This document shows positions 15,538-60,799 of a stretch of DNA of 64,000 bases, piece after piece. The notes below the pieces were generated by a model. It ran no database searches. It saw only the letters and a list, made by a program, of their open reading frames with translations, and was not told where the DNA came from. Each line of letters begins with the position of its first letter. The stretch's first letter is position 1. A program made the position numbers and the translations under genes. The stretch comes from an uncultured virus (IMG/VR IMGVR_UViG_3300021963_000039) (taxonomy: Duplodnaviria; Heunggongvirae; Uroviricota; Caudoviricetes), in IMG/VR virus record IMGVR_UViG_3300021963_000039. One strand, written 5' to 3'.

Positions 15538-15651
15538 TTCTATTCTATCAAACCCGCATTATTATTTATAAGAGTTTATAATGGAAAAGGTGCCCGAAAG
15601 CACCTAATCTGTCCGTAGAGATTGCGGGTTCAACAGACATTTATATTTATA
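15538..15651 (-). ncRNA. Putative antisense sRNA/leader cassette A
   Basis: TATAAATA (15644-51), X UCUGUUGAACCCGCA (15623-37), terminator (15585-605), TATAAATA (15563-70), X' UGCGGGUUUGAUAGA (15544-58); 15 bp with 3 G-U pairs. Confidence 0.65.
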
Positions 15652-16447
15652 TTTCAACTTCAAAGTTTGGATTGAAGTTCAAATTAAGTCCAGAATTGTT
15701 ATATGAATTGTAGTATCCACGAGGATTACATACAACTCTACAATTACCAATCATATAATCCATGTTCTCATGCGTATGTCCGTGTGAGAAGTATTTGATT
15801 TGAGGATGATCCAAAATCAAATCCTCCAAGTTACTCGCATATGCCCCATTCGCAATACCAGCAGTTCGGTATTTTGGATGAACCGATTGATAAGAGGGGG
15901 CATGATGTGTAAGAACCCAAGTTTTAGTATCCTTAAACTCCTCCAATTTTTGCTGAAGAAATAGTTTGGACTTCTTATGAAACTTGAGAGTATCATCCGG
16001 GTTCATCTTACGATAGTTGGAACCAATACGAATAACCTTATAATCATTCATACACTGTGCCGCTTCCATCATCTCCAGAGCATTCTCATTACGAAAATCA
16101 GTCCATAATGTTGCTCCAAGAAATACCCAGTCCTTGATTTTTACATAATCGTTCTCAAGGTAATGGATTTCTTTTGGTAGATGTTCTGCGAGGACATCAA
16201 AAGTTCCTTCGTAGTTGTAACCATATGCTTCATGATTTCCATTTAGATAAAGAACCTCATCAAAGTTCTTTACACACTTCTGTAGGAAGTCATCATAAAC
16301 TTTCTTAAGAGGTCCATTCTTCTTAAAGTGCCGGGCACATAGAATGTCTCCACCAAGAATAAGAACATCTCCTGCTCCAAGGTCAGGAACTCCGTGCCCG
16401 TGTTCGCAACATTCCAAATGTAAATCGCTGACGACTTTGATTTTCAT
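15647..16447 (-). CDS. Calcineurin-like metallophosphoesterase
   Basis: SDLH, GD, GNHE, THH, HGHTH and NPRGY motifs. Confidence 0.9.
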   Translation of the reverse strand: MKIKVVSDLHLECCEHGHGVPDLGAGDVLILGGDILCARHFKKNGPLKKVYDDFLQKCVKNFDEVLYLNGNHEAYGYNYEGTFDVLAEHLPKEIHYLENDYVKIKDWVFLGATLWTDFRNENALEMMEAAQCMNDYKVIRIGSNYRKMNPDDTLKFHKKSKLFLQQKLEEFKDTKTWVLTHHAPSYQSVHPKYRTAGIANGAYASNLEDLILDHPQIKYFSHGHTHENMDYMIGNCRVVCNPRGYYNSYNNSGLNLNFNPNFEVEI

Positions 16448-16512
16448 AATTCTTTTACCTATGAGAACACTATAACCGATTGTGAGTTCGTTTGGGGTTG
16501 TCTTGTGCCACT

Positions 16513-16968
16513 TTAGAAATTGCCCCTACCCTGTCCTACATCAAACACAAATACACCACGATTTATCCACATATCAATTACCCTTTTCCTATCATCAAAA
16601 ACAGCAAAGATATTATAATCCTTCTCAATCTGGTCGGCAAGTTCTCCCTTTACAATCGCATCATCCCGATGGTCTTCATACTTTCGCATTAGAAGACCAT
16701 TATAATCGTGTTCGCAAATACCATACTTCTCAAACCATTTCAGGGTCACATCACGATAGTCATCACTTCTTCCACTTACAAAGAAGATTGGAAATCTATC
16801 TTTGAGTGCGTTAAGAACCTCAAGAACCTGTGGAATTGGTCGGTCGTTTATAATTCCAGCATTCCAGGCATTCCAATTGCGAGGTTTAGTTGCGACATAC
16901 TGACGACGACGAGACACATCACATAATGTCCCATCCAAATCCACAACTATACAATTAGGTTTAGTCAT
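16513..16968 (-). CDS. HAD-family polynucleotide 3'-phosphatase (T4 Pnk C-terminal domain-like)
   Basis: DLDGT, SGR, LLMR, VFDDR..V..MW motifs. Confidence 0.88.
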   Translation of the reverse strand: MTKPNCIVVDLDGTLCDVSRRRQYVATKPRNWNAWNAGIINDRPIPQVLEVLNALKDRFPIFFVSGRSDDYRDVTLKWFEKYGICEHDYNGLLMRKYEDHRDDAIVKGELADQIEKDYNIFAVFDDRKRVIDMWINRGVFVFDVGQGRGNF

Positions 16969-17437
16969 TTACACACTCCACATAATCAAAGTCCTCGTTT
17001 TTAGTGGGAATTTCTAGTTGATGATACATTCTTTTGAGAATGCTTTCGGGAATAAACTTACCTTCACGATGATTGTTTCGTTCTAGTGCCTCCTCTAGTG
17101 ATATCTCAAAGTATATCACACCTCTTGCGTAAAAGGAAGGGATTTTAAGAAGTTTTTTCCTTCGGGATTTGACTGATAAGTTTGTTTGATCCCAGATAAT
17201 GTTCTTGCCCTTGTCCTTCGCCATATTCAGTTGAAGTTCAAGTTCTCGGGTCGCATCACCAATCACATCATCGAAGATTTGATTGTAGGTAAGACCCATT
17301 CTTTGTGCTTGCTTTTCAATATAAGCATCTGTGGATAAGATTACAGCATTAGACCAATAAGGAATTGTTTTCAATTTTTCAGCGTATGTAGATTTCCCGC
17401 AACAAGGGATACCACACAAAAAGACGCATTCGGGCAT
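16961..17437 (-). CDS. P-loop kinase (polynucleotide 5'-kinase-like)
   Basis: GIPCCGKST Walker A, WDQTN, ERN..R. Confidence 0.85.
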   Translation of the reverse strand: MPECVFLCGIPCCGKSTYAEKLKTIPYWSNAVILSTDAYIEKQAQRMGLTYNQIFDDVIGDATRELELQLNMAKDKGKNIIWDQTNLSVKSRRKKLLKIPSFYARGVIYFEISLEEALERNNHREGKFIPESILKRMYHQLEIPTKNEDFDYVECVND

Positions 17438-17441
17438 AATA

Positions 17442-17735
17442 TCAAATGGAATGAGGAGAACTTATTTCAGTCCAAGGAAGAGTTTTCAGTTCTTCATCGG
17501 TAAATTGAATATACTCGTGATGTCGTGGTTCTTCTTTATAAGACTTATAAAGATAAAACTGTTTAAAATTAACAACAGTTCCTCTCAAATCTCCATCTCC
17601 ATCCACTTGATAAACAAGCACATCACAATACTTATTTCTATCGTAGGTCAAGATTGTTGCTCTACGAATAGGTGCTTTTTTTCCTTCAATATCACCATAA
17701 GATGGAATGGGATAATCAGTGAAAGCATCAAGCAT
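17442..17735 (-). CDS. Hypothetical protein
   Basis: First gene after the promoter motif at ~17760-17817. Confidence 0.6.
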   Translation of the reverse strand: MLDAFTDYPIPSYGDIEGKKAPIRRATILTYDRNKYCDVLVYQVDGDGDLRGTVVNFKQFYLYKSYKEEPRHHEYIQFTDEELKTLPWTEISSPHSI

Positions 17736-17817
17736 TTGGAGTTCCTTTGCGTATGGAAGTATTCTACAACAGAAAAAAGTTTTGGTAAAGACCCGTTGTG
17801 ACAGTTTGAGAAGTGGT

Positions 17818-18519
17818 CTATGATATTCTGCGTCTATTGTTTTTGGATGTATCTATACCTCTTGCTTTTTGATATTTTGTAAGATTTCCAGCATTTGTTA
17901 TAAAACCAGTTTCAAGACATTCCCATCTTTGGAGAGCATTTTTCTTATTTCTTTCTTGAACTTTTTCTGGTGGAATAGCAAAAATACCAACACCAAGTTC
18001 TTTTTGTTTTTTACCACTTACTTTACCACCATTAGATCTATATTTCCTCATCTCTTCTTTTGAAAGAGCAAAAAATCCTCTATTAAGTTCAACATTAATT
18101 TTTCCATTTATTTTTCCACTCTTAACACCACCTTTCCTACCGTCTTCGCGCATTTTTTCTTTACTTCTACCACATACGCCAGTTTTATTTTTTGCGTTTA
18201 TTTTTCCACCTTTTTTACCTGCTCTACTACAAGTATCTAATGAAAAAAGTCCTCCACAGTTTTCATTTAAACACCATTTATCGGTATTATAAACTGGTTT
18301 TATCAATCTTCTCTCAACTTCATCCGCATCCTCCCGACTGTTGAAGGTTTCCAATATCTGTTTCTTTGGAGTATAAAGTTCCCAACACCATTTGTGTGTT
18401 TTTGGAGAACCCCAATATTCCTCATCATATACTTTTTCTGCTTTCATTCCATAATAGTAATATGGAACTTCTTCAAAGGTAATTTTGTATGTGTAAATTC
18501 TTGGACTTTGTGAAGTCAT
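17818..18519 (-). CDS. Free-standing GIY-YIG/Seg-like endonuclease B (MTSQ family)
   Basis: Paralogue of A; start re-assigned to MTSQSPRIY. Confidence 0.75.
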   Translation of the reverse strand: MTSQSPRIYTYKITFEEVPYYYYGMKAEKVYDEEYWGSPKTHKWCWELYTPKKQILETFNSREDADEVERRLIKPVYNTDKWCLNENCGGLFSLDTCSRAGKKGGKINAKNKTGVCGRSKEKMREDGRKGGVKSGKINGKINVELNRGFFALSKEEMRKYRSNGGKVSGKKQKELGVGIFAIPPEKVQERNKKNALQRWECLETGFITNAGNLTKYQKARGIDTSKNNRRRIS

Positions 18520-18620
18520 AGTTCTGCTTTTGATTTGGTCTTTACTATTTATACAAGAAAAGGAGCATTTCTGCTCCCGTTCTCTGCTTTTAGCGACCAA
18601 ACCAAAGCACCATTATTTAT
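18520..18620 (-). ncRNA. Putative antisense sRNA/leader cassette B
   Basis: ATAAATA, X UGCUUUGGUUUGGUC, GGAGCAGAAATGCTCC-TTTT, TATAAATA, X' GACCAAAUCAAAAGCA, ATG. Confidence 0.65.
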
Positions 18621-19097
18621 CTACGAATAAACATACTCTTTCCAGTCCAAGACATTAGAAGTATTGATAGTCAGGTGAAGTTTATTATAAGGTCTCTTGA
18701 CTTGTTTCAATAAAATCATTCCTGCCTCTTCTGGTGTTCGGTTTCCTTTCTTTACATTACAAGAACCACAACACGAACATAGGTTCTCCCAACTATCAAT
18801 TCCTCCACGAGACGCAGGATGAATATGGTCTATTGTAAGATTTTCGGTTGCTCCGCAGTATAAACATTTGTATCCATCCCTCTTCATAACTAGACTTCTG
18901 GTGGGACGATTTTCCATTAACTTCTTATAAGGTAATCTAATATAATTCAGCAACCGAATGACTTTTTCGGTAATCATATGTGCCTTTTCTTTAAGAAGTA
19001 GAACAATTGCCCGACGACCATCACAAATATTGATAGGACTATAATCACTATTCAGTACCAGAATATTCTGTGTGATTTTGATTTTTTGATAATCCAT
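18621..19097 (-). CDS. HNH endonuclease (McrA-like)
   Basis: RDGYKCLYCG, LTIDHIHP.SRGG, WENL..CC..CN..KG; start MDYQK after the promoter motif at 19119-19177. Confidence 0.88.
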   Translation of the reverse strand: MDYQKIKITQNILVLNSDYSPINICDGRRAIVLLLKEKAHMITEKVIRLLNYIRLPYKKLMENRPTRSLVMKRDGYKCLYCGATENLTIDHIHPASRGGIDSWENLCSCCGSCNVKKGNRTPEEAGMILLKQVKRPYNKLHLTINTSNVLDWKEYVYS

Positions 19098-19177
19098 AAG
19101 GTCTATGGTTCTTTTGGGTATTATAGAACAATTTACCCATAAAGTCCAGTTCTTATGTGCCAATTTATCAAGTGTCC

Positions 19178-19951
19178 TTATTCTATTCGTGTTCTTTTTG
19201 TAGTGTCTATTCCTCTTTTTCTTTGATATGCCGTTAGTGGTCCAGAAGTTGTAATATATCCGGTTTCGGTACACATCCATTTTTGTGAGTTAGTTACTTT
19301 AGAACCCAATTTTCCTGCTTCACCCAACTCCTTTTTTGACTGACTAAAATACCCACGCTTCAACTCCTTATTCATTTTTCCGCTTATTTTACCACCTTTT
19401 TTCCCATTCTCTTTCATTTCTTCTGTAGTTAATCTAAATATTCCTACTTTATTTTCTTTAGTGAATTTTCCGCCTATTTTTCCCCCTATTTTACCACCTT
19501 TGGCACAATTTTCTTTTTTTTCATTTTCAGTTAATCCAAATATACCATTTTTATTTTCTTGAAGTTTTTTGACATTTGCTCTTCTTTGTTCTGTGGAGAG
19601 AGTAAAAAATCCTAAACCAAGTTCTTTACATTTTTTACCACTATTTCTACAAACATTTAACGAAATAACACCGCCACAATTAGCATTCAGGCACCACTTG
19701 TCCTCATTATAAACAGGTTTAATCAATCTTGTTTCAACTTCTTGTGCTTCGAACCAACCTTCATCAGTAAAAGGAAAAACTTCTAATATTTGTTTCTTTG
19801 GAGTATAAAGTTCCCAACACCATTTGTTTGTTTTTGGAGAACCGATATAGTATTCTCCAAACTTTTTCTCTTTATGAACTCCATAGTAATAATACAAAAC
19901 TTCCTCAAAGGTAATCTTGTAGATGTATATTCTTGGACTTTGTGAAGTCAT
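19178..19951 (-). CDS. Free-standing GIY-YIG/Seg-like endonuclease C (MTSQ family)
   Basis: Paralogue of A, B and D; 4 repeats. Confidence 0.75.
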   Translation of the reverse strand: MTSQSPRIYIYKITFEEVLYYYYGVHKEKKFGEYYIGSPKTNKWCWELYTPKKQILEVFPFTDEGWFEAQEVETRLIKPVYNEDKWCLNANCGGVISLNVCRNSGKKCKELGLGFFTLSTEQRRANVKKLQENKNGIFGLTENEKKENCAKGGKIGGKIGGKFTKENKVGIFRLTTEEMKENGKKGGKISGKMNKELKRGYFSQSKKELGEAGKLGSKVTNSQKWMCTETGYITTSGPLTAYQRKRGIDTTKRTRIE

Positions 19952-20063
19952 TTCTATTCTATCAAACCCGCATTACTATTTATAAGAGTTTATAGTAGAA
20001 AAGGTGCCCGAAAGCACCCAATCTGTCCGTAGAGATTGCGGGTTCAACAGACATTCTTATTTA
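19952..20063 (-). ncRNA. Putative antisense sRNA/leader cassette C (near-identical to A)
   Basis: Same X/X' and terminator as 15538-15651; upstream ATAAATA overlaps the RNA ligase stop. Confidence 0.65.
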
Positions 20064-21226
20064 TCTTGGTAATTCCAATCCAAGTTTCCCCATAACCATC
20101 TTGCGGCATCAATTTTTGGCTGGGAACCCAAAGATTTACGGATTTGTTCTATCACAAGGTTTCTCACAGGAACACCCTTGCGTAATTTATACATAAATGG
20201 TTGATATTGAGGAAGAATAGAAGGAACCGCAACTGTAGCAAACTCCTTCTGGTCCTGCCCCTTATCAATTTGTTTGTAGAGGTCGTGGATGTCCGTACAG
20301 ACATCCTCCAGACCTGCGAGAAACGCCTTCTGGAAGCGTTGGATGCGGTCTGCGTCCTCTGGGGTCAAGAGCGGCACCAAATCATCCACAGCGTCTCCCA
20401 GAACACACTCAAGGACATTCTTCTCCTGACTGATGCTGTCTTTGGAGCGGTGGCGGAGCACATAATCATCCGCTTTCACCTTCACCATATGACCGGTATC
20501 AAAGCGAAGAACAATACCTTCACCATCATCCCATTCACGAACTTGTTTCACGAATAAATCAATATTCTGTAAGGAAAGACCATCAACTGCTTTTACAACA
20601 GGAATATTCCACGAGGTCGCATAAGACTTCATCACCACATAAGGTAAATAAGACCCAGTATGATTATAACGCATTCCGGTGAGAATGAGATTGTCTTCGG
20701 GATAATCCACCACAATTCGGTTCTTACGGGAAACCCACTCAAAGATAGGAGTGGTTCCTTTTTGTATGGATTTGCGAATGAAAGTATTATAGTGAGATTT
20801 ATCGGCAACAAACACTTCTGCGTTCATAGACACAGAAGTTATGCCGGATTTAGTACATAAGCGAAATCCATAAGAAGTTGGTTGAGCGGAAATTAATGAA
20901 CCATCTAACTTCTCAAGAACAATATGAGGTTCATAGAGATTGATTTTATTCAGTTGTGTTTCTTCTTTTTCGCCAACATTAAAGAACTTATGATATTTTC
21001 TACAAATCAGGTCTCCGTTCTCATTAAAAGTAATTCCCCTACATTCTCGTCTTACAGCAGAACCCACAGGGTCATTATCATCCCACTTAAAGGTTTCCTC
21101 AAGTGCGACCATATACTTGATTACGGTGTAACCTTCTTTCTCAATTACACGAAACTCTTTACGACCCTCAATATGGGGAAGAACATCATCAATATGCGTG
21201 ATGTGTGGGAAGTCGTAGGTAATCAT
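20057..21226 (-). CDS. rnlA: RNA ligase 1 (T4 RnlA-like)
   Basis: RECRG, KFFN, EKLDGS adenylation motif, EGIV, VKVK; start MITYDF after the promoter motif at 21248-21304. Confidence 0.9.
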   Translation of the reverse strand: MITYDFPHITHIDDVLPHIEGRKEFRVIEKEGYTVIKYMVALEETFKWDDNDPVGSAVRRECRGITFNENGDLICRKYHKFFNVGEKEETQLNKINLYEPHIVLEKLDGSLISAQPTSYGFRLCTKSGITSVSMNAEVFVADKSHYNTFIRKSIQKGTTPIFEWVSRKNRIVVDYPEDNLILTGMRYNHTGSYLPYVVMKSYATSWNIPVVKAVDGLSLQNIDLFVKQVREWDDGEGIVLRFDTGHMVKVKADDYVLRHRSKDSISQEKNVLECVLGDAVDDLVPLLTPEDADRIQRFQKAFLAGLEDVCTDIHDLYKQIDKGQDQKEFATVAVPSILPQYQPFMYKLRKGVPVRNLVIEQIRKSLGSQPKIDAARWLWGNLDWNYQDK

Positions 21227-21307
21227 AGTTTTTTTTATTATACAATCATTATAATACAAGTTTTCCAAAAATCAAGTTATATTGTGCCAGTTTAATGAGT
21301 GTCCCTC

Positions 21308-22213
21308 CTAAAACATTCTTTTTCTATTAGACACATCTATACCCCTAGATTTTTGGTATCTACTTAATGCCCCCGGTGAGGTAATAAAACCAGTTTCGGT
21401 ACAAATCCATCTTTGTAAGTTTGTTTTTCTCCCACATTCTTGGCGTTTTTCTTTAGGTATTGAATATATCCCACTTCCATTTTCTTTATTTTTAATAGCA
21501 CCTTTTCTCCCATTTTCTCTTATTTGTTCTGGAGATAATGAATATAATCCTGTACCATTTTCTTTGTGTTTTACTAAACTTTTTTTGCTATTTTCTTTCC
21601 GTTGTTCTTTAGTCAAAGAAAATATTCCGCTTTGATTGAGTTTAGTTTGTTCTCCACCTTTTCTAGCATTTTCTTTTATTTTTTCTTCATCATAAGAAAA
21701 TATTCCTTTTTTATTATTTTTACAAGAGTTTCCTCCTTTTATGCCGTGCTGCGACATTTCTTCTTTTGTGCGAGAAAATACTCCCTTTTTTTCTTCTTTA
21801 CTTTTGAGACCCGCTTTTTTACAATTGTCAATTCTTTCTTCTTCAGTTAATGAGAAAAAACCTGTACTATTATTTTTATTATTTGTTCCAACTTTTTTCC
21901 CATTTTTTCTCCTAATTTCTAATGATATTGAACCGCCACAATTTTCATTAAGGCACCATTTATCACTTTGATATACTGGACCAATCAATCTTTGTTCTAT
22001 CTCGTTTGCTTCTAACCAACCTTCATCTGTAAAATCAAAGAACTGAAGTATTTGTTTCTTTGGACTATAGAGTTCCCAACACCATTTGTGTGTTTTTGGA
22101 GAACCAATATAATATTCCCCAAACTTTTTCTCTTTATGAACTCCATAATAGTAATACAAAACTTCCTCAAAAGTAATTTTGTATATGTAAATTCTTGGAC
22201 TTTGTGAAGTCAT
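21308..22213 (-). CDS. Free-standing GIY-YIG/Seg-like endonuclease D (MTSQ family)
   Basis: Paralogue with six 26-aa repeats. Confidence 0.75.
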   Translation of the reverse strand: MTSQSPRIYIYKITFEEVLYYYYGVHKEKKFGEYYIGSPKTHKWCWELYSPKKQILQFFDFTDEGWLEANEIEQRLIGPVYQSDKWCLNENCGGSISLEIRRKNGKKVGTNNKNNSTGFFSLTEEERIDNCKKAGLKSKEEKKGVFSRTKEEMSQHGIKGGNSCKNNKKGIFSYDEEKIKENARKGGEQTKLNQSGIFSLTKEQRKENSKKSLVKHKENGTGLYSLSPEQIRENGRKGAIKNKENGSGIYSIPKEKRQECGRKTNLQRWICTETGFITSPGALSRYQKSRGIDVSNRKRMF

Positions 22214-22311
22214 AGTTCTACTCTGTAATTCGCATTACTATTTATACAAGAAAAGGAGCAGAAATGCTCCTTTTCTACCTTAAGTGCGAACTACAGGTAA
22301 TGTTATTTATA
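22214..22311 (-). ncRNA. Putative antisense sRNA/leader cassette D
   Basis: TATAAATA, X UACCUGUAGUUCGCA, terminator, TATAAATA, X' UGCGAAUUACAGAGUA. Confidence 0.65.
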
Positions 22312-22361
22312 ATACCTCTTAACAGAAAAGTCAAGAGGTAATGGACGGTTTATGAACTGGT

Positions 22362-22631
22362 TCAGGGATTGATTTCTTCCATCATTTCCTTCGCTATTCT
22401 ATCATACTTGCGGTTCTGTATCCAAGTGGTAATGAAGTTATTGGGATGAAATCTTATCATCCATAAAAGTCTTACCACATTTAATTTCATCATCTTAAAG
22501 ACCAATAAAAAATAATCGGCAACATTTTGGTCTATAATCATTATATACAGAGCAATTCCAAATACAAGAAGTAATCCGTAATTAAGTGAAAACATAGAGT
22601 TGTTTATGATGTGAGAATATTTATTAATCAC
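22362..22631 (-). CDS. Small membrane protein
   Basis: N-terminal TM segment. Confidence 0.55.
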   Translation of the reverse strand: MINKYSHIINNSMFSLNYGLLLVFGIALYIMIIDQNVADYFLLVFKMMKLNVVRLLWMIRFHPNNFITTWIQNRKYDRIAKEMMEEINP

Positions 22632-22665
22632 ATTCTATCATAAATTTACAATAATTTTGTATTAT

Positions 22666-23571
22666 CTAATCCAATCTTTTTCTTTTAGATGTATCTATTC
22701 CTCTTCTTCTTTGATATTGACTTAAATTTCCCGGATTGGATATAAATCCAGTTTCAAGACACATCCACTTTTGTGCGTTAGTTTTTTTACATCCTTCACT
22801 TTTACCTTTAGGATTTCCCAATTTTCCACCTATTTTGCCATTTTCTCTTCTTTGCTCTGTAGTAAGTCCGTGAATTCCCAACCCAAGTTCTTTTGCTTTT
22901 TTACCTGCGTTTTTACTATTAATAATCCTTTGACTTTTAGTAATGCCATATAATCCAATTTTTAGTTTTTTCTGCGTTTTTGCGCCTTTTTTACCATTTT
23001 CAATCAGTTTTTCTTTACTTTGTCCGCATACTCCAGTTTTATTTTCTTTATTTTTGTTTCCTATTTTTCTACTATTATTACTTTTTTCTTCTGGGGTCAT
23101 TCCAAATATACCAATTCCAAGTTCTTTTGCTTTCATTCCTCCAAGTTTTCCCCCAATTTTTCCATTTATTTTAGCATTTTCTTTCCTTTGTTCTGGGGTT
23201 AGAGAAAATATACCAGTTCCATTTTTTTTATGGTTGTCACCAACTTTCTTTCCATTTTTAGACGCCCATTCTTTTGACGGAAAATAACAAAATCCAGTAG
23301 AAGATGCCTTTGCTCTATTTGCGAAATGTGGATTATTTCCTACATCATAGTAGTCGTGTAAGATAATCTCATCAGCATTTGCCTCTACCCTTGTAATATA
23401 ATCACTTTTTAAGATTATTTTTTGAGTTGGTTTAAAAGTTTTATCCTTATAAGTTCCAAAATATCTTACATCTTCTTCAGGGAGACAATCACAACTTCTT
23501 ACCCCAAAATATCCTCTACCCCATTCTTCATAAGAATAATAGGTATAATGATACTCTTTTTGAGTTTTCAT
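22666..23571 (-). CDS. Free-standing GIY-YIG/Seg-like endonuclease E
   Basis: YTYYSYEEWGRGYFG N-domain (shared with G), five repeats and WMCLETG C-domain (shared with A-D). Confidence 0.75.
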   Translation of the reverse strand: MKTQKEYHYTYYSYEEWGRGYFGVRSCDCLPEEDVRYFGTYKDKTFKPTQKIILKSDYITRVEANADEIILHDYYDVGNNPHFANRAKASSTGFCYFPSKEWASKNGKKVGDNHKKNGTGIFSLTPEQRKENAKINGKIGGKLGGMKAKELGIGIFGMTPEEKSNNSRKIGNKNKENKTGVCGQSKEKLIENGKKGAKTQKKLKIGLYGITKSQRIINSKNAGKKAKELGLGIHGLTTEQRRENGKIGGKLGNPKGKSEGCKKTNAQKWMCLETGFISNPGNLSQYQRRRGIDTSKRKRLD

Positions 23572-23668
23572 AGTTCTTCTCTGTAAGTCGCAATACTATT
23601 TATACAAGAAAAGGAGCATTTCTGCTCCCTCTCTACCTATAATGCGACCTACAGGCATTACTATTTAT
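23572..23668 (-). ncRNA. Putative antisense sRNA/leader cassette E
   Basis: ATAAATA, X CUGUAGGUCGCA, terminator, TATAAATA, X' UGCGACUUACAG. Confidence 0.65.
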
Positions 23669-24240
23669 CAATCCCAAAAAAATTCTAACGCACGGAGGCA
23701 TCCAAAAAATTGATTATAATCACAGGAAATACCATAACTCTTACCTTCCTTGAGTTCGTCTATGAAGTTTAGAATACCGGTGGTTGCGGGATTATGTTGA
23801 AGATATTCGTGAAATCTAAACACATCAAACTTCTCATTATAAGAAAGAAAGGAACAATAATTGTCGGTGTATCCGGTCACAAATAAACTACTTCGGTCAA
23901 TACCAGAATTGTTTATAGTGTTCCATTTATAGGTGGGTTCTCCATTATATTCACCACATTCTTCACTAAAGTCGTGTTCCAGTCCGTCAATATACTCATC
24001 ATACTTTTCTGGGTCAATACAGAATTTAGTTTCTTTCCATTTTTTGGTTTCGTCCAGACACATTCCCCGGAAATCACCGGATGCCCTGAAGACAAGATTT
24101 AGAACATAATATTGCCAATCAGGAAACTCATCTCCTTCTTCAAAAATACCAATCTTTTCAGCGAACTTTTCCCCCGATGCCCATCTGGAACGATAGGAGT
24201 GATGTAGTATCTCAAATTGGCGGTCTTCGGTCTCATTCAT
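23668..24240 (-). CDS. Hypothetical protein
   Basis: 190-aa ORF. Confidence 0.7.
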   Translation of the reverse strand: MNETEDRQFEILHHSYRSRWASGEKFAEKIGIFEEGDEFPDWQYYVLNLVFRASGDFRGMCLDETKKWKETKFCIDPEKYDEYIDGLEHDFSEECGEYNGEPTYKWNTINNSGIDRSSLFVTGYTDNYCSFLSYNEKFDVFRFHEYLQHNPATTGILNFIDELKEGKSYGISCDYNQFFGCLRALEFFWD

Positions 24241-24409
24241 TTGTGTTTTCTCTCATCAGTATAAGTTTTCCCCAAATTATATCATAATAATTTTGACTAT
24301 CAATATCGTGTTCGTATACCTCATTTAGTTTAATTTTTGATTTAACCAAACTAATCAAATCTTCAATTTCTTGTTTGGTTAAGTTCTCAAATACTGGGTC
24401 GGTTGTCAT

Positions 24410-24739: not shown

Positions 24740-24777
24740 TTGATTATGATAATGAGAATGGATATTGAGAGTATTTA

Positions 24778-25551: not shown

Positions 25552-25577
25552 TTGAGTTTCCTCTGTTGGTTACTTGT

Positions 25578-26078: not shown

Positions 26079-26079
26079 T

Positions 26080-26730
26080 TTACGGTGCTTTAGTGTATCC
26101 TTTGTATGATCTACAGTGCCCGTTATGTAAGTTTATCATACAGATATGATTTAGATTATTTTTTTCACAATATTCTCGTAAATTATCTATTTTTATTTTA
26201 TCACCATTTGGAGTTATATACCATCTTGTTTTAAGATTTTTTCCTCTTGTTGCGGCACTTATTTTTTTAAGAGTTTCTGGTGAATGTTTTTTACCATAGT
26301 TTGGATTTCCTTCACCCGAATATATCTCACTATAATGTTTTTTAAGATAATCAGGCATTTTTTTACCCATATGAGATTCACTTATTTTTCTTCTTGTTTC
26401 TTCATTATAAACTTTTCCTTTATGCGCTTTGCTAATTAATTCCCTTGTTCTTTGTGAAACATTAGAAGAACCTTCACCGCCATCGCTGATGTTGATGAGA
26501 ATACCTGTCCCTAAATCTTTTCTGCCAAGAACAGCGATCATATACATTTCGTGTTTATATGCTTCTATTTCATCAACAAAGTATTTTAATATTATAATTC
26601 TGTCCTTATCTTTTGGAGTAAAACTTCCGTTTCCCCTCCAATGTTCGGCAAACATTCTTCTTTTTTGTCCCTTTCCAATATAATAGGGAGTTTTATCCGT
26701 CTTACGAAGGTAAGCATAAGTGTAATACAT
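26080..26730 (-). CDS. Free-standing GIY-YIG endonuclease F with NUMOD3-like repeats
   Basis: YYTYAYLR..TPYYIGKG, E..MI, L.N..DGGEG; EETRRKISESH / HSPETLKKIS repeats. Confidence 0.8.
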   Translation of the reverse strand: MYYTYAYLRKTDKTPYYIGKGQKRRMFAEHWRGNGSFTPKDKDRIIILKYFVDEIEAYKHEMYMIAVLGRKDLGTGILINISDGGEGSSNVSQRTRELISKAHKGKVYNEETRRKISESHMGKKMPDYLKKHYSEIYSGEGNPNYGKKHSPETLKKISAATRGKNLKTRWYITPNGDKIKIDNLREYCEKNNLNHICMINLHNGHCRSYKGYTKAP

Positions 26731-26823
26731 TTGTGTCTTGGCGTGACTATTACTATTTATAATAGAATAGGTGTGGGACTTACGCAACTACAATCCGCCA
26801 AGACACAAGTTGCCGCCCACATA
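26731..26823 (-). ncRNA. Variant leader cassette F
   Basis: X UUGUGUCUUGGCG in the loop of a GUGGG/CCCAC + GCAAC/GUUGC stem; TATAAATA; X' CGCCAAGACACAA directly before ATG (13 bp perfect). Confidence 0.6.
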
Positions 26824-51268: not shown

Positions 51269-51270
51269 TC

Positions 51271-51990
51271 CTAGGCGAAAAAACTTGTTAGCCCTTCTAA
51301 TGTAATATCACTTTCCACACCAGTATTGGGATTTTTGATTGAAATTGTATGAGAAAGTTTAGGCATCGTATTGAAGAATTTTTCAATTTCTTTAAATTGT
51401 TGAGAAGTCAATTGCTCTAAAAATTCTTCTAGTTCTTTTTTGGTAGAATCTGATGCAGGCCAAGACTCTTCTTCTGAGTAAATTTGATCTATACAAGATA
51501 CAATCATCTCAAAAGTATCATCTACACCCATTCCCCCATCATTTGAGAAATTATTTTTAATAAACTCCTTCATAGAAGGATACTTCATTCTTAATTTCAA
51601 AGTATCATCAAGTTTAATATCTCTAGAATGTTCGGGTTTTACCACAACCGAAATATCATCAAGATTTATTGTTACCGGAACCTGAGTTGTTCCATCGTCA
51701 GGGCAAGTTAAAAGAACATCAACGTCTTCCCCGACAGATTTTCCCCGAACATTTAAGAAAATATATTCAATATCAAAAATTGATAATTGATCTACTTTAA
51801 TACCTCTGGTAATAATACAATTTGCAATTACGGTCTTAAGTGCTTCGGCAATTTGCTTTGGATCTTCACTCTCCATAGCAATAATTAAAATCTTTTCTTC
51901 TTTTACAAGAAAAGGTCTATATTTAATTTCTTTCTTAATAGATGGTATTTCTAAACTATATGTCGGCGTTACAATTTTTGGTAAAGGCAT
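51271..51990 (-). CDS. gp26: Baseplate hub subunit gp26
   Basis: MPLPKI..PTY, YRPFLVKEEKIL, FL..RGKSVGE, FF.TMPKL, LEGL.SFF. Confidence 0.9.
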   Translation of the reverse strand: MPLPKIVTPTYSLEIPSIKKEIKYRPFLVKEEKILIIAMESEDPKQIAEALKTVIANCIITRGIKVDQLSIFDIEYIFLNVRGKSVGEDVDVLLTCPDDGTTQVPVTINLDDISVVVKPEHSRDIKLDDTLKLRMKYPSMKEFIKNNFSNDGGMGVDDTFEMIVSCIDQIYSEEESWPASDSTKKELEEFLEQLTSQQFKEIEKFFNTMPKLSHTISIKNPNTGVESDITLEGLTSFFA

Positions 51991-52020
51991 TTTTTTTAAT
52001 TCAAATCATATTAAATATAT

Positions 52021-52877: not shown

Positions 52878-53315
52878 ATGTCTTATAAGGGAAAGTTTAA
52901 ACCATCATTTCCGGAAAAGTATGTTGGAGACCCGACAAATATTATCTATAGGTCCTTATGGGAATTGAAGTTTCTTAAATATTGTGATACGAATGAAAAT
53001 ATTTTAGAATATGCCTCTGAAGAACTTGCCATTCCTTATCGTTCTCCGGTAGATGGTAAAGTTCATAGATATTTTCCCGATGCTTATATAAAAGTCAAAG
53101 AACCAGATGGAAGCATTAAAAAATATTTGATTGAGATTAAACCTTATAAGCAAACGATGCCGCCACCAAAACCAAAAAGGCAGACCAAAGGATATATCTA
53201 TGAAGCATATGAGTACGCTAAGAACCAATCAAAATGGGAAGCAGCAAGAGAATATTGTAAGGACAGGGGATGGACCTTTAGGGTAATTACAGAACACGAA
53301 CTTTATGGGAAATAG
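52878..53315 (+). CDS. gp4: Head completion nuclease gp4
   Basis: IIYRSLWE, SEE..IPY, HRYFPD, IEIKP, N..KW.AA; TAAATA at 52819-52824. Confidence 0.92.
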   Translation: MSYKGKFKPSFPEKYVGDPTNIIYRSLWELKFLKYCDTNENILEYASEELAIPYRSPVDGKVHRYFPDAYIKVKEPDGSIKKYLIEIKPYKQTMPPPKPKRQTKGYIYEAYEYAKNQSKWEAAREYCKDRGWTFRVITEHELYGK

Positions 53316-55927: not shown

Positions 55928-55956
55928 ATTATAGAAGATTTATAAAGGGATGTCAA
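55928..55956 (-). promoter_or_regulatory. Consensus sigma70 promoter of gp32
   Basis: TTGACA-17 nt-TATAAT; -35 overlaps the endonuclease G stop. Confidence 0.85.
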
Positions 55957-56648
55957 GCCCTCGTCCAACCTTTATGATGATTTCTTTTACCGCAAATTAC
56001 ATAATGCATAGCTGAACCGGTGAGATTATTTTGTTCGCAAAAATATTTGAGATTATTTGTGGTATGTATTTTTCCTTCCGGATCTTTCATTATCCAAGTT
56101 TTATTATCTCTTGCTACTTTTCTTTCTCTTATTTGCTCCTTCTGCTCTTCTGTAAGTTTTTTACCGAGCATTCCTTTTGGAGATATTCTTCCCATATGCG
56201 ATTTACTCATTTTTCTTTTGGTTTCTTCAGATGCTTTTCTATTTTTAGCAGCATCTGATATTTTCTTTCTAACTTCTAGTCTTTTTGCCGGATTATTTTC
56301 TCCAAGTTTTCCTGCTCTAATTTTCTCTTTAACATCATCTCTTTTTGATGGATTATCCTCACCAAATACCCGACAATAAAACTTTTTAGAAGTTTGCCTT
56401 GCTTTGTTGGCAAAATGAGGATTTTTATCTACTTCATAAAAGTCGTGAAGAACACATTCTGCCTCAAGTGCATCTTCTACGCTATCAAAAGTTTCTAAAA
56501 TGATTTTTTGAGTTGGTTTAAAAGTTTTGTCTCTAAAACTTCCAAAATAATTTATATCTTCTTCTGGAAGACATTTACATTCTCTTTTTCCAATATATCC
56601 ATTACCAAACTCTTCATAAGAGTAATAGACATAAAAATACTTTTTCAT
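55953..56648 (-). CDS. Free-standing GIY-YIG/Seg-like endonuclease G
   Basis: YVYYSYEEFGNGYIG, YFGS, E..LH, HFAN; NUMOD3-like SEETKRKMSKSH. Confidence 0.8.
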   Translation of the reverse strand: MKKYFYVYYSYEEFGNGYIGKRECKCLPEEDINYFGSFRDKTFKPTQKIILETFDSVEDALEAECVLHDFYEVDKNPHFANKARQTSKKFYCRVFGEDNPSKRDDVKEKIRAGKLGENNPAKRLEVRKKISDAAKNRKASEETKRKMSKSHMGRISPKGMLGKKLTEEQKEQIRERKVARDNKTWIMKDPEGKIHTTNNLKYFCEQNNLTGSAMHYVICGKRNHHKGWTRA

Positions 56649-56750
56649 TCTTCTCTAATCGGGTGACATAAGTATTTATACAAGAAAGGAGCACCGAAGC
56701 ACTCCAATCTAACCTGAAAAGTGTCACCCGATCAGGCATTTGTATTTATT
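56649..56750 (-). ncRNA. Putative antisense sRNA/leader cassette G
   Basis: ATAAATA, CCUGA[UCGGGUGACACUUU]UCAGG, terminator-like hairpin, TATAAATA, X' UGUCACCCGAUUAG. Confidence 0.65.
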
Positions 56751-57697: not shown

Positions 57698-57726
57698 ATT
57701 ATAGCAGGAACTCTGGTTCTAGTCAA
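57698..57726 (-). promoter_or_regulatory. sigma70 promoter of gp59
   Basis: TTGACT-17 nt-TATAAT; -35 overlaps the endonuclease H stop. Confidence 0.75.
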
Positions 57727-58385
57727 GACTCCGGATCCAGAGGAGCATTCTCAAGGTTTTTCATTATGTCACGCTGTCTTTGATATTCTATTAATTTTTC
57801 TCTATTTTTTTGATAATACTGTCTATGATATTCTCTTAATTTTTCTTTATTTTTTATTCGATATTGTTTTTGAATTTCTTTTATTGTTTCTTTATTTTTT
57901 TCTCTATACTTTTTATTACATTCCTTTTTTGTTTTACTATTCCTCCCCTTTTCATTTAGTTTTTCTCTATTATTATCCGCATATTTTTTCTTATTTTTTA
58001 TCACTCTTTCTTTATTTCTTTCCACCCATTTTCTTTGTGTTTCTTTTCCTTTTTCGGACTGTTGATATTTTTTTAACGCTTCAATTCTTAATTTTTCTTT
58101 TTCTTCTTGAGTTCTTATTAAACTTGATCTATTTCTTCCACCAATACTTCTGTTAATAAGAATACCACCCTCACTTTTTCTTTTATATACGGATATTAAC
58201 CACTCTTCAAATAAATAACTTTCTTCTTCATTATCAAAATATTTAACTATTACTATTCTATCCTTTGGCGGAGGAGAAATCCATCTTTTTCCCCAAGTAT
58301 GTTTTACATATGCTCTATATTCTTTACCCTTACCAACATAATAAGGAGTTCTATTCTCTCTTACCCAGAGATAAACGTAATACAT
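57723..58385 (-). CDS. Free-standing GIY-YIG endonuclease H with helical K/R/E repeats
   Basis: YYVYLWVRENRTPYYVGKG, E..LI, L.N...GG; (K)YxxxNxE repeats; start MYYVY. Confidence 0.75.
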   Translation of the reverse strand: MYYVYLWVRENRTPYYVGKGKEYRAYVKHTWGKRWISPPPKDRIVIVKYFDNEEESYLFEEWLISVYKRKSEGGILINRSIGGRNRSSLIRTQEEKEKLRIEALKKYQQSEKGKETQRKWVERNKERVIKNKKKYADNNREKLNEKGRNSKTKKECNKKYREKNKETIKEIQKQYRIKNKEKLREYHRQYYQKNREKLIEYQRQRDIMKNLENAPLDPES

Positions 58386-58487
58386 TTCTACTCTTAACTT
58401 AGGTGACATAAGTATTTATACAAGAAAAGGGCAACAATTGCCCTCTTCTACCTGAAAAGTGTCACCTAAGTCAGGCACCATTATTTA
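58386..58487 (-). ncRNA. Putative antisense sRNA/leader cassette H
   Basis: TAAATA, CCUGA[CUUAGGUGACACUUU]UCAGG, GGGCAA/TTGCCC terminator, TATAAATA, X' UGUCACCUAAGUUA. Confidence 0.65.
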
Positions 58488-58494
58488 GTTGACA

Positions 58495-58866: not shown

Positions 58867-59547
58867 TTAGTCAACCCCCATGAGTTCAAGTTTATCATTC
58901 ACAAACTTTTTGATATACTTAACCACTAATTTCATATATTTTTTTAGGTCACTTTCTTCATAGACAACGGACTCACCATCTTCACATGCCATAATAATCA
59001 CAAGTTTCTTAATTGGAGTTCCCGTCATTTCATAATATGCCATACCATAAAACATCGCTTGGACGAAATAATTCTCAATCCACTCTCTTGGTTTTGGTTT
59101 TTTAGAAGTCTTAAAGTCAATTACAGCGAGTTCACCATCATATTCGGCAATACAATCCGTTGTTCCGGCAACTCCAAGTTGGAGACTATAAAGTGGTCCT
59201 TCGAGGCAGTGGATATTATTAATTTTATTCAGTTCCGCCTTCGCAATCTTAAAAAGAAAATCCGGCAAAGGCGGAACTGACGGCAGAGTTTTATTATAAA
59301 GGTAGTTTTCCACAAGAGAATGCATATCCGTGCCACGAGAAGTAGCCGCTTTAGTGATCTTTTGCGCCTCTTCCTCACCAACCCTTTTACGCCATTTGAC
59401 AAATATTTCACGATTAAAATGACTAGTAACAGAGGTGATTGAAACTAATTTTAGAACCTGATTTTCTTTAGGAATTGAATAATAACGAACTCCATCAATT
59501 GTTTCTCTTTCGAGTTTTGGCAATTCAACATCAAGATGATTAAACAT
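58867..59547 (-). CDS. PD-(D/E)XK exonuclease (cyanophage type)
   Basis: SITSV, RGT.MH, AGT.DCIAEYDG, IDFKTS, YFVQ. Confidence 0.88.
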   Translation of the reverse strand: MFNHLDVELPKLERETIDGVRYYSIPKENQVLKLVSITSVTSHFNREIFVKWRKRVGEEEAQKITKAATSRGTDMHSLVENYLYNKTLPSVPPLPDFLFKIAKAELNKINNIHCLEGPLYSLQLGVAGTTDCIAEYDGELAVIDFKTSKKPKPREWIENYFVQAMFYGMAYYEMTGTPIKKLVIIMACEDGESVVYEESDLKKYMKLVVKYIKKFVNDKLELMGVD

Positions 59548-59572
59548 TATAATTCTCGTTTTTTATATTATA

Positions 59573-60325
59573 TCACAGACCAAGTGATTTTTTCGCAATT
59601 ACAAACTCTTTAACTAAATTTGATCTTACAATATCATCAATACCAAACTCAAGTTTTTCAAAAGAAGGCATCGCCTCAATTACACGAATAAAATCAATAA
59701 TTCCGGTTTTTTCACTTGCTCTAGTTAAATCACTCTGTTCGATGTCTCCCGAAAACATAATTTTAGTATCCTCACCACATCTTGAAATTACAGAAAAGCT
59801 CTCGTGGGCTGAACAATTTTGTGCCTCATCTACAATAATGATTGAATTGTCTAAAGTAATTCCACGAATAAAAGAAGTACACCAGAATGAAATTGTATTC
59901 TGTGACTTTAGATTTCCATAAAGCATCTCAAAATCTACATCACTCGGCATCTGGAACATATATTTTACCATATTCTTATATGGTATTTCAAATAATGATT
60001 TCTTATCGTCCTCTCCGCCGGGCATAAATCCAATTTCTCTAGTTTGAACTAAAGAACGAACGATATAAATCTTTTCATAGGGAGTAGTTTCGTCAAGAAC
60101 ATCTTTAAGTGCCTTATAAAGAAGGCAAAAAGTTTTACCAGAACCAGGAACACCGTGAGCGAAAATATTTTTTCCCTCATCATAATACTTGAATAGAAGT
60201 TTTTGATTTTCTGTAAGAGGGTCAATATCAACCAGATAATCCAAACTAATCGGTTTTTTACGCTTCGCTTGTTTTGCTGTAAGACCAACACCGATTGGTT
60301 GATCTGATTTTCTTCTTCTTGCCAT
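59573..60325 (-). CDS. phoH: PhoH-family ATPase
   Basis: G.PGSGKT, EIGF.PG, SFIRG.T, IVDEAQN, GD..QSDL, DIVRS. Confidence 0.95.
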   Translation of the reverse strand: MARRRKSDQPIGVGLTAKQAKRKKPISLDYLVDIDPLTENQKLLFKYYDEGKNIFAHGVPGSGKTFCLLYKALKDVLDETTPYEKIYIVRSLVQTREIGFMPGGEDDKKSLFEIPYKNMVKYMFQMPSDVDFEMLYGNLKSQNTISFWCTSFIRGITLDNSIIIVDEAQNCSAHESFSVISRCGEDTKIMFSGDIEQSDLTRASEKTGIIDFIRVIEAMPSFEKLEFGIDDIVRSNLVKEFVIAKKSLGL

Positions 60326-60331
60326 AAGTGG

Positions 60332-60574
60332 TTAGAGTTTTTTTACAGTTGATCCGGGCATTTTCTGAGCACGACCAAGTACTTCATTCCACGAAGGGTG
60401 CTTGGCGGTTAATTTATCCCGCCAATCCCCCGCTTCTCCAACATTCATTTGTGTTGGAATAAGAGGTTTAATATAAGGATTTTCTTTGAGATATGGTTCT
60501 TTTTCTGCCATATACATCCATTTCTCGAAGATTTCTCCTGTTTCTGTATTCTCAAATCTATAAGTCGGGCACAT
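60332..60574 (-). CDS. Conserved small protein (PTY.F N-terminus, FmdB-like)
   Basis: PTYRFEN..TGE..E...; position next to phoH. Confidence 0.65.
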   Translation of the reverse strand: MCPTYRFENTETGEIFEKWMYMAEKEPYLKENPYIKPLIPTQMNVGEAGDWRDKLTAKHPSWNEVLGRAQKMPGSTVKKL

Positions 60575-60698
60575 AAGGTATAATAATTTACAAAATATTT
60601 AGGGATATATTAATTTATTTTTTTCCAAAGATATTTAATTTATTCCCCAAATAAGATATTCAATTGTACCATATCAATTTAATTAAAGCAAGGGAACT

Positions 60699-60799
60699 AA
60701 TAAATAACTATACCTGTGTGGTTCGCATCTATCAGGAGGAAGAGGTGCTTCGGCACCTTTTCTTGTATAAATAGTATTGCGAACCATAACAGAGTAGAA
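60699..60799 (+). ncRNA. Putative antisense sRNA/leader cassette I
   Basis: ATAAATA, CCUG[UGUGGUUCGCAUCUAU]CAGG, AGGTGC-TTCG-GCACCT-TTT, TATAAATA, X' UGCGAACCAUAACAG. Confidence 0.7.

Follow-up and report, generated by a model that had tools for sequence, protein, structure and literature searches.

Among the selfish elements of T4-like phages, homing endonucleases are the principal ones, and the means by which a phage withstands many of them are understood only in part. The question arises in a stretch of 64,000 nucleotides (nt) from an uncultured virus (IMG/VR record IMGVR_UViG_3300021963_000039), here called the window, which holds nine genes for nucleases or nuclease-like proteins, named A to I. 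By Pfam content the window is from a T4-like cyanomyovirus that encodes gp32, gp59, the late-transcription co-activator gp33, PhoH, and ThyX, as well as RNA ligase 1, a baseplate protein, and UvsW-like helicase domains. Among cultured phages, the freshwater Synechococcus phage S-SRM01 is closest to it, at 81% identity across 8% of a 10.5-kb query. A preliminary description, made from the DNA alone, proposed that each nuclease gene travels with an upstream cassette for a cognate antisense-like RNA. Here we ask what these cassettes are and how they might act, and we report that eight of them share one architecture, in which two complementary arms appear to be maintained as RNA, and that they belong to a large family.

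Eight cassettes of one architecture

Inspection of the gene strand confirmed eight cassettes of ~100 nt upstream of homing-endonuclease-like genes, where the preliminary description had placed them (Table 1). All eight had the same order: an upstream box that we call P1, [A/C/G/T][A/C]TAAATA; 4 nt; an arm X, the 5′ end of which closes a local stem of 5 to 8 bp; a GC hairpin followed by a T run; a second box, P2, with the sequence TATAAATA; 3 to 5 nt; an arm X′; 1 to 10 nt; and the ATG. Each X paired with its own X′, as had been claimed, through 12 to 18 pairs at −20.0 to −25.4 kcal/mol. Two other claims held in part. The upstream TAAATA box was present in every copy, but P1 was identical to P2 in A and D only, and X differed between copies in general, but not between A and C, whose X is identical.

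We trained a covariance model, R1, on 48 IMG/VR cassettes together with cassette D and scanned it over the whole window with filters off. R1 matched exactly the eight cassettes on the gene strand (E 6.9e-15 to 1.7e-6), and its remaining matches were two weak opposite-strand echoes, at D and B (E 0.032 and 0.81). A second model, R2, of the part between P1 and the T run found no orphan copies of that part in the window, as it returned the same eight sites and one terminator-only echo. The box by itself was not enriched: ATAAATA occurred at 32 sites in the window versus 30.4 expected, and 15 of the 32 lay inside the eight cassettes. P1 of cassette E overlaps the TGA stop of the upstream open reading frame (ORF). 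Cassette I points against its neighbors, and a simple scan of the plus strand upstream of it found no sigma-70-like box, such that P1 is the sole recognizable source of X there.

We note that A and C have 10 to 12 extra nt between the T run and P2 (15571-15587 and 19985-20001), which include a degenerate TATAAAC box and look like a partial duplication of P2. An ATG often precedes X, and a small ORF starting there was considered and rejected, as neither its length nor its frame was conserved by eye among the eight cassettes; it had 24 codons in A, 20 in E, and 7 in B, and in G it was open into the gene in another frame.

The cassette belongs to a large and portable family

An exact scan of IMG/VR for a 17-mer spanning the T run and P2 returned at least 125 stretches. 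Among the matches listed there were 104 distinct parsable sequences, of which 98 were cassettes by the criterion of an X:X′ duplex at or below −12 kcal/mol (median, −22.6 kcal/mol); the other 6 were chance 17-mer matches with best duplexes of only −4.7 to −9.9 kcal/mol. Non-cognate combinations of X and X′ had a median of −9.9 kcal/mol (n = 970) versus −22.6 for cognate ones (n = 98), and 17.7% of the non-cognate combinations reached −15 kcal/mol because many of the cassettes are related. The 96 cassettes with a located P1 box among these matches carried 49 different X′ cores.

Because the 17-mer sample had been chosen through part of the cassette itself, a second sample was drawn through the nuclease protein alone. 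A profile of the N-terminal domain shared by proteins H and I found 571 relatives, the best 80 of which were kept. A full-length R1 match lay directly upstream of the gene in 68 of these 80, a leader of the kind found at gene F (see below) in 6, and no cassette in 6. The resulting protein-anchored alignment contained 64 distinct cassettes. Six cassettes were found in S-SRM01 (MW015081), at 17953-18055, 48433-48538, 51247-51350, 55959-56061, 62406-62517, and 192421-192522, and two were found in the nearest record to the window, a 28.9-kb fragment. Elsewhere, the nucleases behind cassettes were of the GIY-YIG type (PF01541; loci L004 and L124), of the HNH type (PF01844; L125 and L086), or carried NUMOD3 only.

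A search of Rfam, which the preliminary description had proposed, assigned the cassette to no family. At gathering score the window held just two tRNAs, and when positions 15400-23800 were searched to E 5, the best sub-threshold scores were 12.8 to 26.5 bits versus cut-offs of 55.8 to 86. A description of the cassette was also not found in titles, abstracts, and passages of the literature, supplements aside; an unnamed candidate in the tables of a 2023 survey could overlap with it. PMC3037559 mentions endonuclease-flanked gene cassettes, PMC10690425 is a large-scale survey of viral structured RNAs, and PMC12197685 is a review of phage small RNAs (sRNAs). We conclude, as judged from sequence, that the cassette is a large, previously undescribed family that is portable among unrelated nuclease families.

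Four metatranscriptome runs, from a set with small shares (0.05 to 0.10), were aligned to the window at 90% likeness, as contigs of other phages that inform on presence or absence and not on expression, RNA ends, or strand; gaps in their cover carry no meaning. Unit E was skipped in relatives' contigs, from 22630 to 23695 (255 letters on the shorter side of the joint) and, in another run, from 22630 to 23701 (32 letters). Unit C was skipped from 19064 to 20095, with 94 other letters in its place (103 letters on the shorter side), and unit D was skipped from 21226 to 22324 at a weak joint with 28 letters on the shorter side. As every skipped stretch comprised one cassette and its gene, P1 included, relatives without units E, C, and D exist.

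Several observations were made along the way. The E joint also replaces the final ~26 nt of the upstream ORF. At ~15609, between the local stem and the terminator of cassette A, the summed contig depth in one run was 206 versus nearby bin means of at most 50, which could reflect repeat collapse or an abundant short RNA and was not used as evidence. In two loci, L046 and L104, the cassette sits directly 3′ of an apparent tRNA gene 3′ end (GGTTCGAGTCTCG...), and the gene behind it is HNH-like by motif. In S-SRM01 (locus L128), the product of 62515-63273, which lies behind a cassette, is annotated as "translation initiation factor 2" but looks misnamed, as it resembles a repeat-rich nuclease-like protein, and the annotated start of the NUMOD3 protein at 51291-51992 falls within the cassette at 51247-51350.

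X and X′ covary on the gene-strand RNA

In an alignment of 109 cassettes (108 distinct), 93.3% of X:X′ cells were paired versus 72.8% in shuffles, none of 500 of which reached the observed value, and 40 to 57% when partners were slid. Moreover, 15 of the 16 pairs showed changes on both sides. The 64 protein-anchored cassettes gave the same result, with 93.0% of cells paired, changes on both sides in 27 of 28 pairs, and 37 to 55% pairing for slid partners.

Departures from Watson-Crick pairing were asymmetric. Duplex parses contained 57 G(X)-U(X′) pairs and 11 of the reverse, and none of the fifteen 1×1 mismatches was A-C. In a model-fitted alignment there were 52 G-U or U-G cells versus 12 A-C or C-A cells. 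Consistent with a strand preference, R1 scored 96.7 bits on the gene strand at cassette D and 27.2 bits on the opposite strand. G-U was thus far commoner than A-C, an asymmetry that a DNA palindrome would lack. We conclude that selection acts on the RNA of the gene strand rather than on DNA, in agreement with the earlier proposal (68 versus 0 in parses; 52 versus 12 in the model alignment).

An upstream promoter box, a terminator, and a predicted short RNA

The extra late-promoter box and internal terminator, which the preliminary description had noted in the window, proved to be conserved parts of the module. TAAATA was found upstream of X in 96 of the 98 cassettes among the listed 17-mer matches and in 63 of the 64 protein-anchored cassettes, and in the latter set a hairpin followed by at least four T within the next 8 nt was found in 62. 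P1 stood 4 nt from the first helix column in 61 of the 64, and P2 was TATAAATA in 59. The P2-to-X′ offset mirrored the P1 spacing, as it was 4 nt in 59 of the 98 cassettes, 3 nt in 18, and 5 nt in 15 (92 of 98 at 3 to 5 nt). A simple terminator scan recognized three of the five cassettes within 15000-27000.

In T4, the late promoter consists of an 8-bp box that precedes the start by about one helical turn, and A(−13) variants are common (passages of PMC2988020). The P1 variants (ACT/AAT/GAT-AAATA) matched boxes found 20 to 40 nt upstream of ordinary phage genes, among them those for a baseplate protein, the gp33 homologue, and a 1,222-aa pectate-lyase-like ORF. Perfect TATAAATA occurred in only 1 of 15 ordinary-gene boxes (site 40349), and the other 14 were N[A/C/T]TAAATA. 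As the perfect box stands at P2 of all nine nuclease genes and at P1 of A and D, the nuclease promoters are nearer to the T4 consensus than are the phage's own.

The RNA implied by P1 and the terminator would be 49 to 64 nt long, with a median of 54, in the protein-anchored set and 51 to 56 nt in the window, where it is predicted to fold into two hairpins, the first of which would hold the 3′ portion of X in its loop, as the loop display proposed earlier would have it. The minimum free energy (MFE) structure of the short RNA had two hairpins in 49 of 49 and 63 of 64 sequences. The local stem also covaried, with changes on both sides in 6 of 7 pairs and 69 to 77% of cells paired in a less certain alignment, and the cognate 5′ and 3′ arms of the stem paired at or below −5 kcal/mol in 39 of 49 cases versus 35% of non-cognates.

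Predicted masking in cis and pairing in trans

The MFE structure of read-through RNA, which includes both arms, contained X:X′ in eight of eight window cassettes. Over positions −14 to +3 relative to the start codon, the mean unpaired probability fell from 0.39 to 0.81 in the P2 mRNA to 0.16 to 0.48 in read-through RNA. Across the family, a co-directional ORF precedes 78 of 93 cassettes.

When the predicted short RNA was co-folded with the P2 leader, the net gain was −11.5 to −15.9 kcal/mol for the eight cognate pairs and 0 to −5 for most non-cognates. The exceptions were A and C, which were interchangeable, and the combinations D/E, B with E or I, and I with D, E, or A, which were predicted to cross-pair at −5.7 to −9.9 kcal/mol. 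The notion of paralogue-specific pairs put forward earlier thus describes most combinations but not these. When the window was searched by duplex energy for further targets of each X, many chance matches at −16 to −23 kcal/mol came up, and the search was uninformative about extra targets.

A second leader architecture at gene F

Gene F had been said to carry a variant of the cassette, and its leader indeed has a second architecture, here called type 2, in which X lies in the loop of a large hairpin with no TAAATA box upstream (Table 1). The MFE structure of the read-through leader of F also contained X:X′. Six more type-2 leaders were found among the 80 protein-anchored loci. These leaders share a conserved scaffold hairpin, GGGCAGCAA ... 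UUGCGUAAGUCCC, with X in its loop, after which come a short U-rich tail, P2, and X′, and the seven copies carry three different X/X′ pairs. A TAAATA box lay upstream in one of the seven (L138). In this nested form, X:X′ and the scaffold stem are mutually exclusive or pseudoknotted. We conclude that there are two kinds of leader built on X, P2, and X′ and that P1 is regularly present in type 1 only.

How the cassette may act

The core of the arrangement is well supported: pairing in RNA hides the leader of the nuclease mRNA, which is a known kind of control. What the cassette adds to the T4 form of that control, as read in its sequence, is P1, the position of the terminator, and the display of X in a loop. 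Strict retention of P1 in type 1 indicates that P1 does something, and the simplest account of all three additions is that the module makes a separate RNA of ~54 nt as well. We favor, with about as much doubt as confidence, a portable lock of the T4 type (I-TevI, segB, and Aeh1 mobE) that has been extended by its own promoter and terminator and that would work in two modes, one in cis and one in trans. X′ would form the first 15 to 20 nt of the P2 mRNA and end 1 to 10 nt before the start codon. In the cis mode, by analogy to T4, transcripts from the upstream gene would mostly stop at the terminator, and those that read through would fold X onto X′ with the initiation region masked, such that the nuclease would not be made from early or middle RNA; because P2 lies between the arms, P2 mRNA would lack X and be translatable late. 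In the trans mode, P1 would start an RNA exactly at X that ends at the terminator, and this two-hairpin RNA of ~54 nt would pair with the 5′ end of the P2 mRNA and throttle nuclease translation late, to an extent that would scale with gene dosage.

A number of points weigh against the dual-mode lock. The release of a discrete ~54-nt RNA by P1 and the terminator is probable, but it is deduced from the DNA letters by themselves. A single promoter class would produce the repressor RNA and its target simultaneously, which looks wasteful. The AUG lies outside the X:X′ helix, such that masking would be partial, and by naive duplex energy chance sites are as good as some cognates, such that specificity would have to come from accessibility. 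Fitting to the model structure favors pairing in both covariation alignments, while the duplex parses are independent of that fitting. The transcript start was presumed, on our part, to be the sixth nt after the box. Passages of PMC2988020 say merely about one helical turn. Lastly, type-2 leaders keep X, P2, and X′ mostly without P1, so a lock does not need P1, and the experimentally studied T4-family precedents all act in cis, as far as passages of PMC2988022 and PMC3014915 describe them.

These last two points keep alive a serious rival, in which control is in cis only: the terminator would act as an insulator that stops read-through, X:X′ would mask the remainder, and P2 would confine expression to late times, while the P1 transcript would be a by-product with no regulatory role or P1 would be kept for another reason. 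We regard this as possible, though somewhat doubtful. The co-directional ORFs before most cassettes could supply the read-through RNA, and X:X′ is present in every read-through MFE structure in the window. Moreover, T4 endonuclease terminators are leaky, at 30 to 50% termination (passages of PMC2790892), which would give a second layer value. Control in cis alone nevertheless leaves unexplained the retention of TAAATA at a fixed 4-nt spacing in both samples, the upkeep of a local stem that displays X, and the presence of the whole module in cassette I, which is oriented against its neighbors. Nor does it account for the placement of X upstream of the terminator, as most X-bearing RNAs would never contain X′.

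P1 could instead act at the level of DNA or transcription, either because polymerases from P1 that stall or terminate at the T run would occlude and damp P2 or because the P1-terminator unit would mainly give upstream messages a stable 3′ end. The T run directly adjoins P2 (CTTTTCTTG-TATAAATA) in cassettes B, D, E, G, H, and I as inspected, P1 and P2 are only ~65 to 70 nt apart, and a helix of A tract and U tract extends the terminator hairpin. A and C, however, have their extra nt between the T run and P2 in an otherwise intact module, the 9 nt before P2 vary, with CTTTTCTTG in just 16 of the 64 protein-anchored cassettes, and occlusion explains neither the local stem nor a fixed RNA start at X, so we consider such a role unlikely. 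A short RNA with some other partner, whether the nuclease protein or a host or phage RNA besides the adjacent leader, seems more improbable still. Regulatory nucleic-acid partners are possible for such nucleases, as the operator bound by T4 I-TevI overlaps the late promoter of the enzyme's own gene (passages of PMC2988022), but one cassette serves GIY-YIG, HNH, and NUMOD3-only proteins, which speaks against a specific protein-RNA fit, the target scan of the window gave chance-level matches only, and X changes jointly with the adjacent X′ in every lineage, as a dedicated X:X′ predicts. Autorepression by I-TevI through that operator (passages of PMC2988022) is also the precedent for the reading that we disfavor most and hold to be scarcely credible, in which the X/X′ inverted repeat acts as DNA, be it a nuclease operator, a recombination site, or a cruciform flanking P2. 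The overwhelming majority of mismatches read as G-U on the gene strand and would read as A-C on its complement, R1 prefers the gene strand by a wide score difference at cassette D, and single-nucleotide bulges are tolerated.

Relation to known systems

Hairpins that mask the ribosome-binding site and enclose a late promoter are described for I-TevI, I-TevII, I-TevIII, segB, and Aeh1 mobE and for T4 e, soc, and 49 (Edgell, Gibb, and Belfort 2010, passages of PMC2988022; Uzan and Miller 2010, passages of PMC3014915). Like those, the cassette has a stable helix, here of 12 to 18 pairs, over the initiation region of a homing endonuclease gene and a late promoter between the arms (TATAAATA in eight of eight), from which late mRNA would lack the 5′ arm, and its purpose would likewise be to leave the nuclease untranslated from read-through RNA. 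Unlike those, its 5′ arm lies upstream of an intrinsic terminator, has a conserved late-promoter box of its own, and is displayed in a small hairpin loop; its helix ends before the AUG; and it is a portable module found with unrelated nuclease families in well over 100 phage contigs. A terminator also limits expression of T4 mobE and segF, with 30 to 50% of mobE transcripts terminated (Wilson and Edgell 2009, passages of PMC2790892), and in both cases an intrinsic terminator cuts transcripts that reach a free-standing endonuclease gene. In T4, however, the terminator falls within the 5′ part of the coding sequence, and mobE lacks a dedicated promoter (passages of PMC2790892), whereas the cassette terminator is upstream of a dedicated late promoter and nested in the X:X′ helix. 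The preliminary description, which compared the cassette with a late promoter inside a sequestering hairpin, took in too little of the T4 literature, in which such hairpins and limiting terminators are both described for free-standing endonucleases (passages of PMC2790892, PMC2988022, and PMC3014915). A dedicated promoter for the 5′ arm together with a terminator between the arms was found in none of the T4-family systems compared, as those sources portray them.

Beyond T4, the predicted RNA invites comparison with RNAs of other mobile elements. RNA-OUT of IS10/Tn10, which targets RNA-IN, and the antisense RNAs of type I toxin-antitoxin (TA) systems are short, terminator-ended stem-loop RNAs whose loop is complementary to the start of the target mRNA, at its 5′ end and initiation region, and the DNA strand that encodes them is the one opposite their target. 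Like RNA-OUT, the RNA predicted here would present in a loop its complementarity to the 5′ end of the mRNA for a mobile element's enzyme and would limit expression as copy number rises; unlike RNA-OUT and type I TA RNAs, it would come from the same strand, upstream, with complementarity provided by an inverted repeat. The type-I-TA-like logic suggested earlier fails on two defining features, as X is on the same strand and thus not cis-antisense and as the products are nuclease-like proteins of 216 to 301 aa rather than a small membrane toxin. sRNAs derived from 3′ untranslated regions, of the DapZ and MicL class, have an internal promoter and share the terminator of the upstream gene, but they are host chromosomal, have many targets, and depend on Hfq. 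The cassette resembles that class in having a promoter near the end of the upstream gene and a short RNA that would share that gene's terminator, and it differs in being phage borne with a single adjacent target. Promoter-early-stem-loop (PeSL) cassettes, reportedly described in T4-type phages by Arbiol et al. in 2010, carry early promoters and may mediate gene shuffling. Cassettes and PeSLs alike are short conserved units of promoter and stem-loop that move with accessory genes in T4-type genomes. To our knowledge, PeSLs have not been described as pairing with a downstream leader.

If the dual-mode lock is correct, the cassettes would be portable, self-contained pairs of sRNA and target that move with homing endonuclease genes of several families, and the nuclease dose would be capped as genome copies multiply, which would let one genome carry nine or more such genes. 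They would also be the first class of trans-acting regulatory sRNA in T4-like phages, as a 2010 review records no such RNA functionally characterized from T4 (PMC3014915). S-SRM01, with its six copies, offers a cultured test system. Were the sRNA real, the family would be a naturally modular, orthogonal set of sRNA and leader pairs, with at least 49 X′ cores, and could be a parts list for synthetic translational control.

Nuclease genes and neighboring genes

The coordinates of cassettes, leaders, and genes are given in Table 1. Five of the eight window proteins behind type-1 cassettes matched the homing endonuclease family phrog_314, and none of the eight matched PF01541 (GIY-YIG) at E 0.01. 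Two N-terminal families were distinguished, of the A type and of the H/I type, and a profile-profile comparison found no sequence link between them (probability, 0.2). The H/I-type profile weakly matched the solved GIY-YIG protein 9u75_A (E 0.0075). The A-type profile found no sequence link among PDB sequences (best E, 0.74), and an AlphaFold model of the A-type domain from a five-sequence alignment was unusable (mean pLDDT, 39.7; pTM, 0.33). In the ESM Atlas, the clusters nearest to the A-type N-terminal 100 aa were SegE_GIY-YIG and GIY-YIG (score, 0.95; structure TM, 0.75 to 0.88), which we treat as a lead only.

Table 1. Positions of cassettes, leaders, and genes. Positions are those of the window unless a locus is named; −, minus strand; +, plus strand; aa, amino acids; energies are for the X:X′ duplex.
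Feature	Position	Strand	Parts or product	Matches and energies
Cassette A (type 1)	15535..15651	−	P1 TATAAATA 15651-15644; X ~15637-15623; terminator stem 15605-15588; P2 15570-15563; X′ ~15558-15544; ATG 15537-15535	R1 E 1.7e-6; 15 pairs, −23.3 kcal/mol; terminator recognized by simple scan
Cassette B (type 1)	18517..18621	−	P1 GATAAATA 18621-18614; X ~18609-18595; P2 18553-18546; X′ ~18540-18525; ATG 18519-18517	R1 E 2.1e-14; 15 pairs with one bulge, −20.0 kcal/mol; terminator recognized by simple scan
Cassette C (type 1)	19949..20065	−	P1 GATAAATA 20065-20058; X/X′ same as A; P2 19984-19977; ATG 19951-19949	R1 E 6e-7; 15 pairs, −23.3 kcal/mol
Cassette D (type 1)	22211..22311	−	P1 TATAAATA 22311-22304; X ~22299-22285; P2 22246-22239; X′ ~22234-22219; ATG 22213-22211	R1 E 6.9e-15; 15 pairs, −20.4 kcal/mol
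Cassette E (type 1)	23569..23669	−	P1 GATAAATA 23669-23662; X ~23654-23643; P2 23604-23597; X′ ~23592-23581; ATG 23571-23569	R1 E 1.3e-14; 12 pairs, −20.6 kcal/mol
Cassette G (type 1)	56646..56750	−	P1 AATAAATA 56750-56743; X ~56735-56722; P2 56680-56673; X′ ~56668-56655; ATG 56648-56646	R1 E 1.5e-12; 14 pairs, −25.4 kcal/mol
Cassette H (type 1)	58383..58489	−	P1 ACTAAATA 58489-58482; X ~58477-58460; P2 58420-58413; X′ ~58408-58389; ATG 58385-58383	R1 E 4.4e-13; 18 pairs, −22.8 kcal/mol
Cassette I (type 1)	60699..60802	+ (opposite its neighbors)	P1 AATAAATA 60699-60706; X ~60711-60727; P2 60766-60773; X′ ~60778-60796; ATG 60800-60802	R1 E 5e-14; 17 pairs, −23.3 kcal/mol
Leader F (type 2)	26731..26823	−	Hairpin GGGCGGCAAC ... 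GUUGCGUAAGUCCCAC; loop X UUGUGUCUUGGCG; weak U-rich tail; P2 TATAAATA 26761-26754; X′ CGCCAAGACACAA up to ATG at 26730	
Type-2 leader, L138	292-394			
Type-2 leader, L154	304-406			
Type-2 leader, L157	298-400			
Type-2 leader, L161				
Type-2 leader, L205	292-394			
Type-2 leader, L214	292-394			
Nuclease gene A	14824..15537	−	237 aa, N-terminus MTSQSPRIYIYKIT	phrog_314 homing endonuclease E 8.6e-6; no Pfam match at E 0.01
Nuclease gene B	17818..18519	−	233 aa, A-type N-terminal family	phrog_314 E 5.8e-10
Nuclease gene C	19178..19951	−	257 aa	phrog_314 E 1.8e-8
Nuclease gene D	21308..22213	−	301 aa, N-terminal family of A-C; 72% identity to A, first 100 aa	No PHROG match at 1e-3
Nuclease-like gene E	22666..23571	−	301 aa, N-terminus MKTQKEYHYTYYSYEE, NUMOD3-like repeats	Sole match phrog_24910 (unknown function) E 3.4e-5
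Nuclease gene F	26080..26730	−	216 aa, N-terminus MYYTYAYLR	NUMOD3 E 4.8e-16
Nuclease gene G	55953..56648	−	231 aa; NUMOD3 and I-HmuI NUMOD-like domains	phrog_314 E 9.3e-22
Nuclease-like gene H	57723..58385	−	220 aa, N-terminus MYYVYLW..PYYVGKG	phrog_10829 (unknown function) E 9.8e-43
Nuclease gene I	60800..61489	+	229 aa; C-terminus resembles I-HmuI DNA-binding part (1u3e_M, E 2.7e-5)	phrog_15526, phrog_10829, phrog_314
HNH endonuclease ORF	18621-19280	−	Between gene C and cassette B	PF14279/PF01844
TnsA-like gene	52878-53312	+	TnsA-like endonuclease N-terminal domain	
MazE/AbrB-like gene	10857-11399	−	MazE/AbrB-like domain protein	
DNA methylase gene	8188-9171	−	N6/N4 DNA methylase	

The HNH ORF is a tenth nuclease gene and has no cassette. 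Its longest form shares ~100 nt with the end of gene C in a different frame, and the true start therefore probably lies further downstream. The TnsA-like, MazE/AbrB-like, and DNA methylase genes of Table 1 are further genes of the window with a mobile-element or defense flavor.

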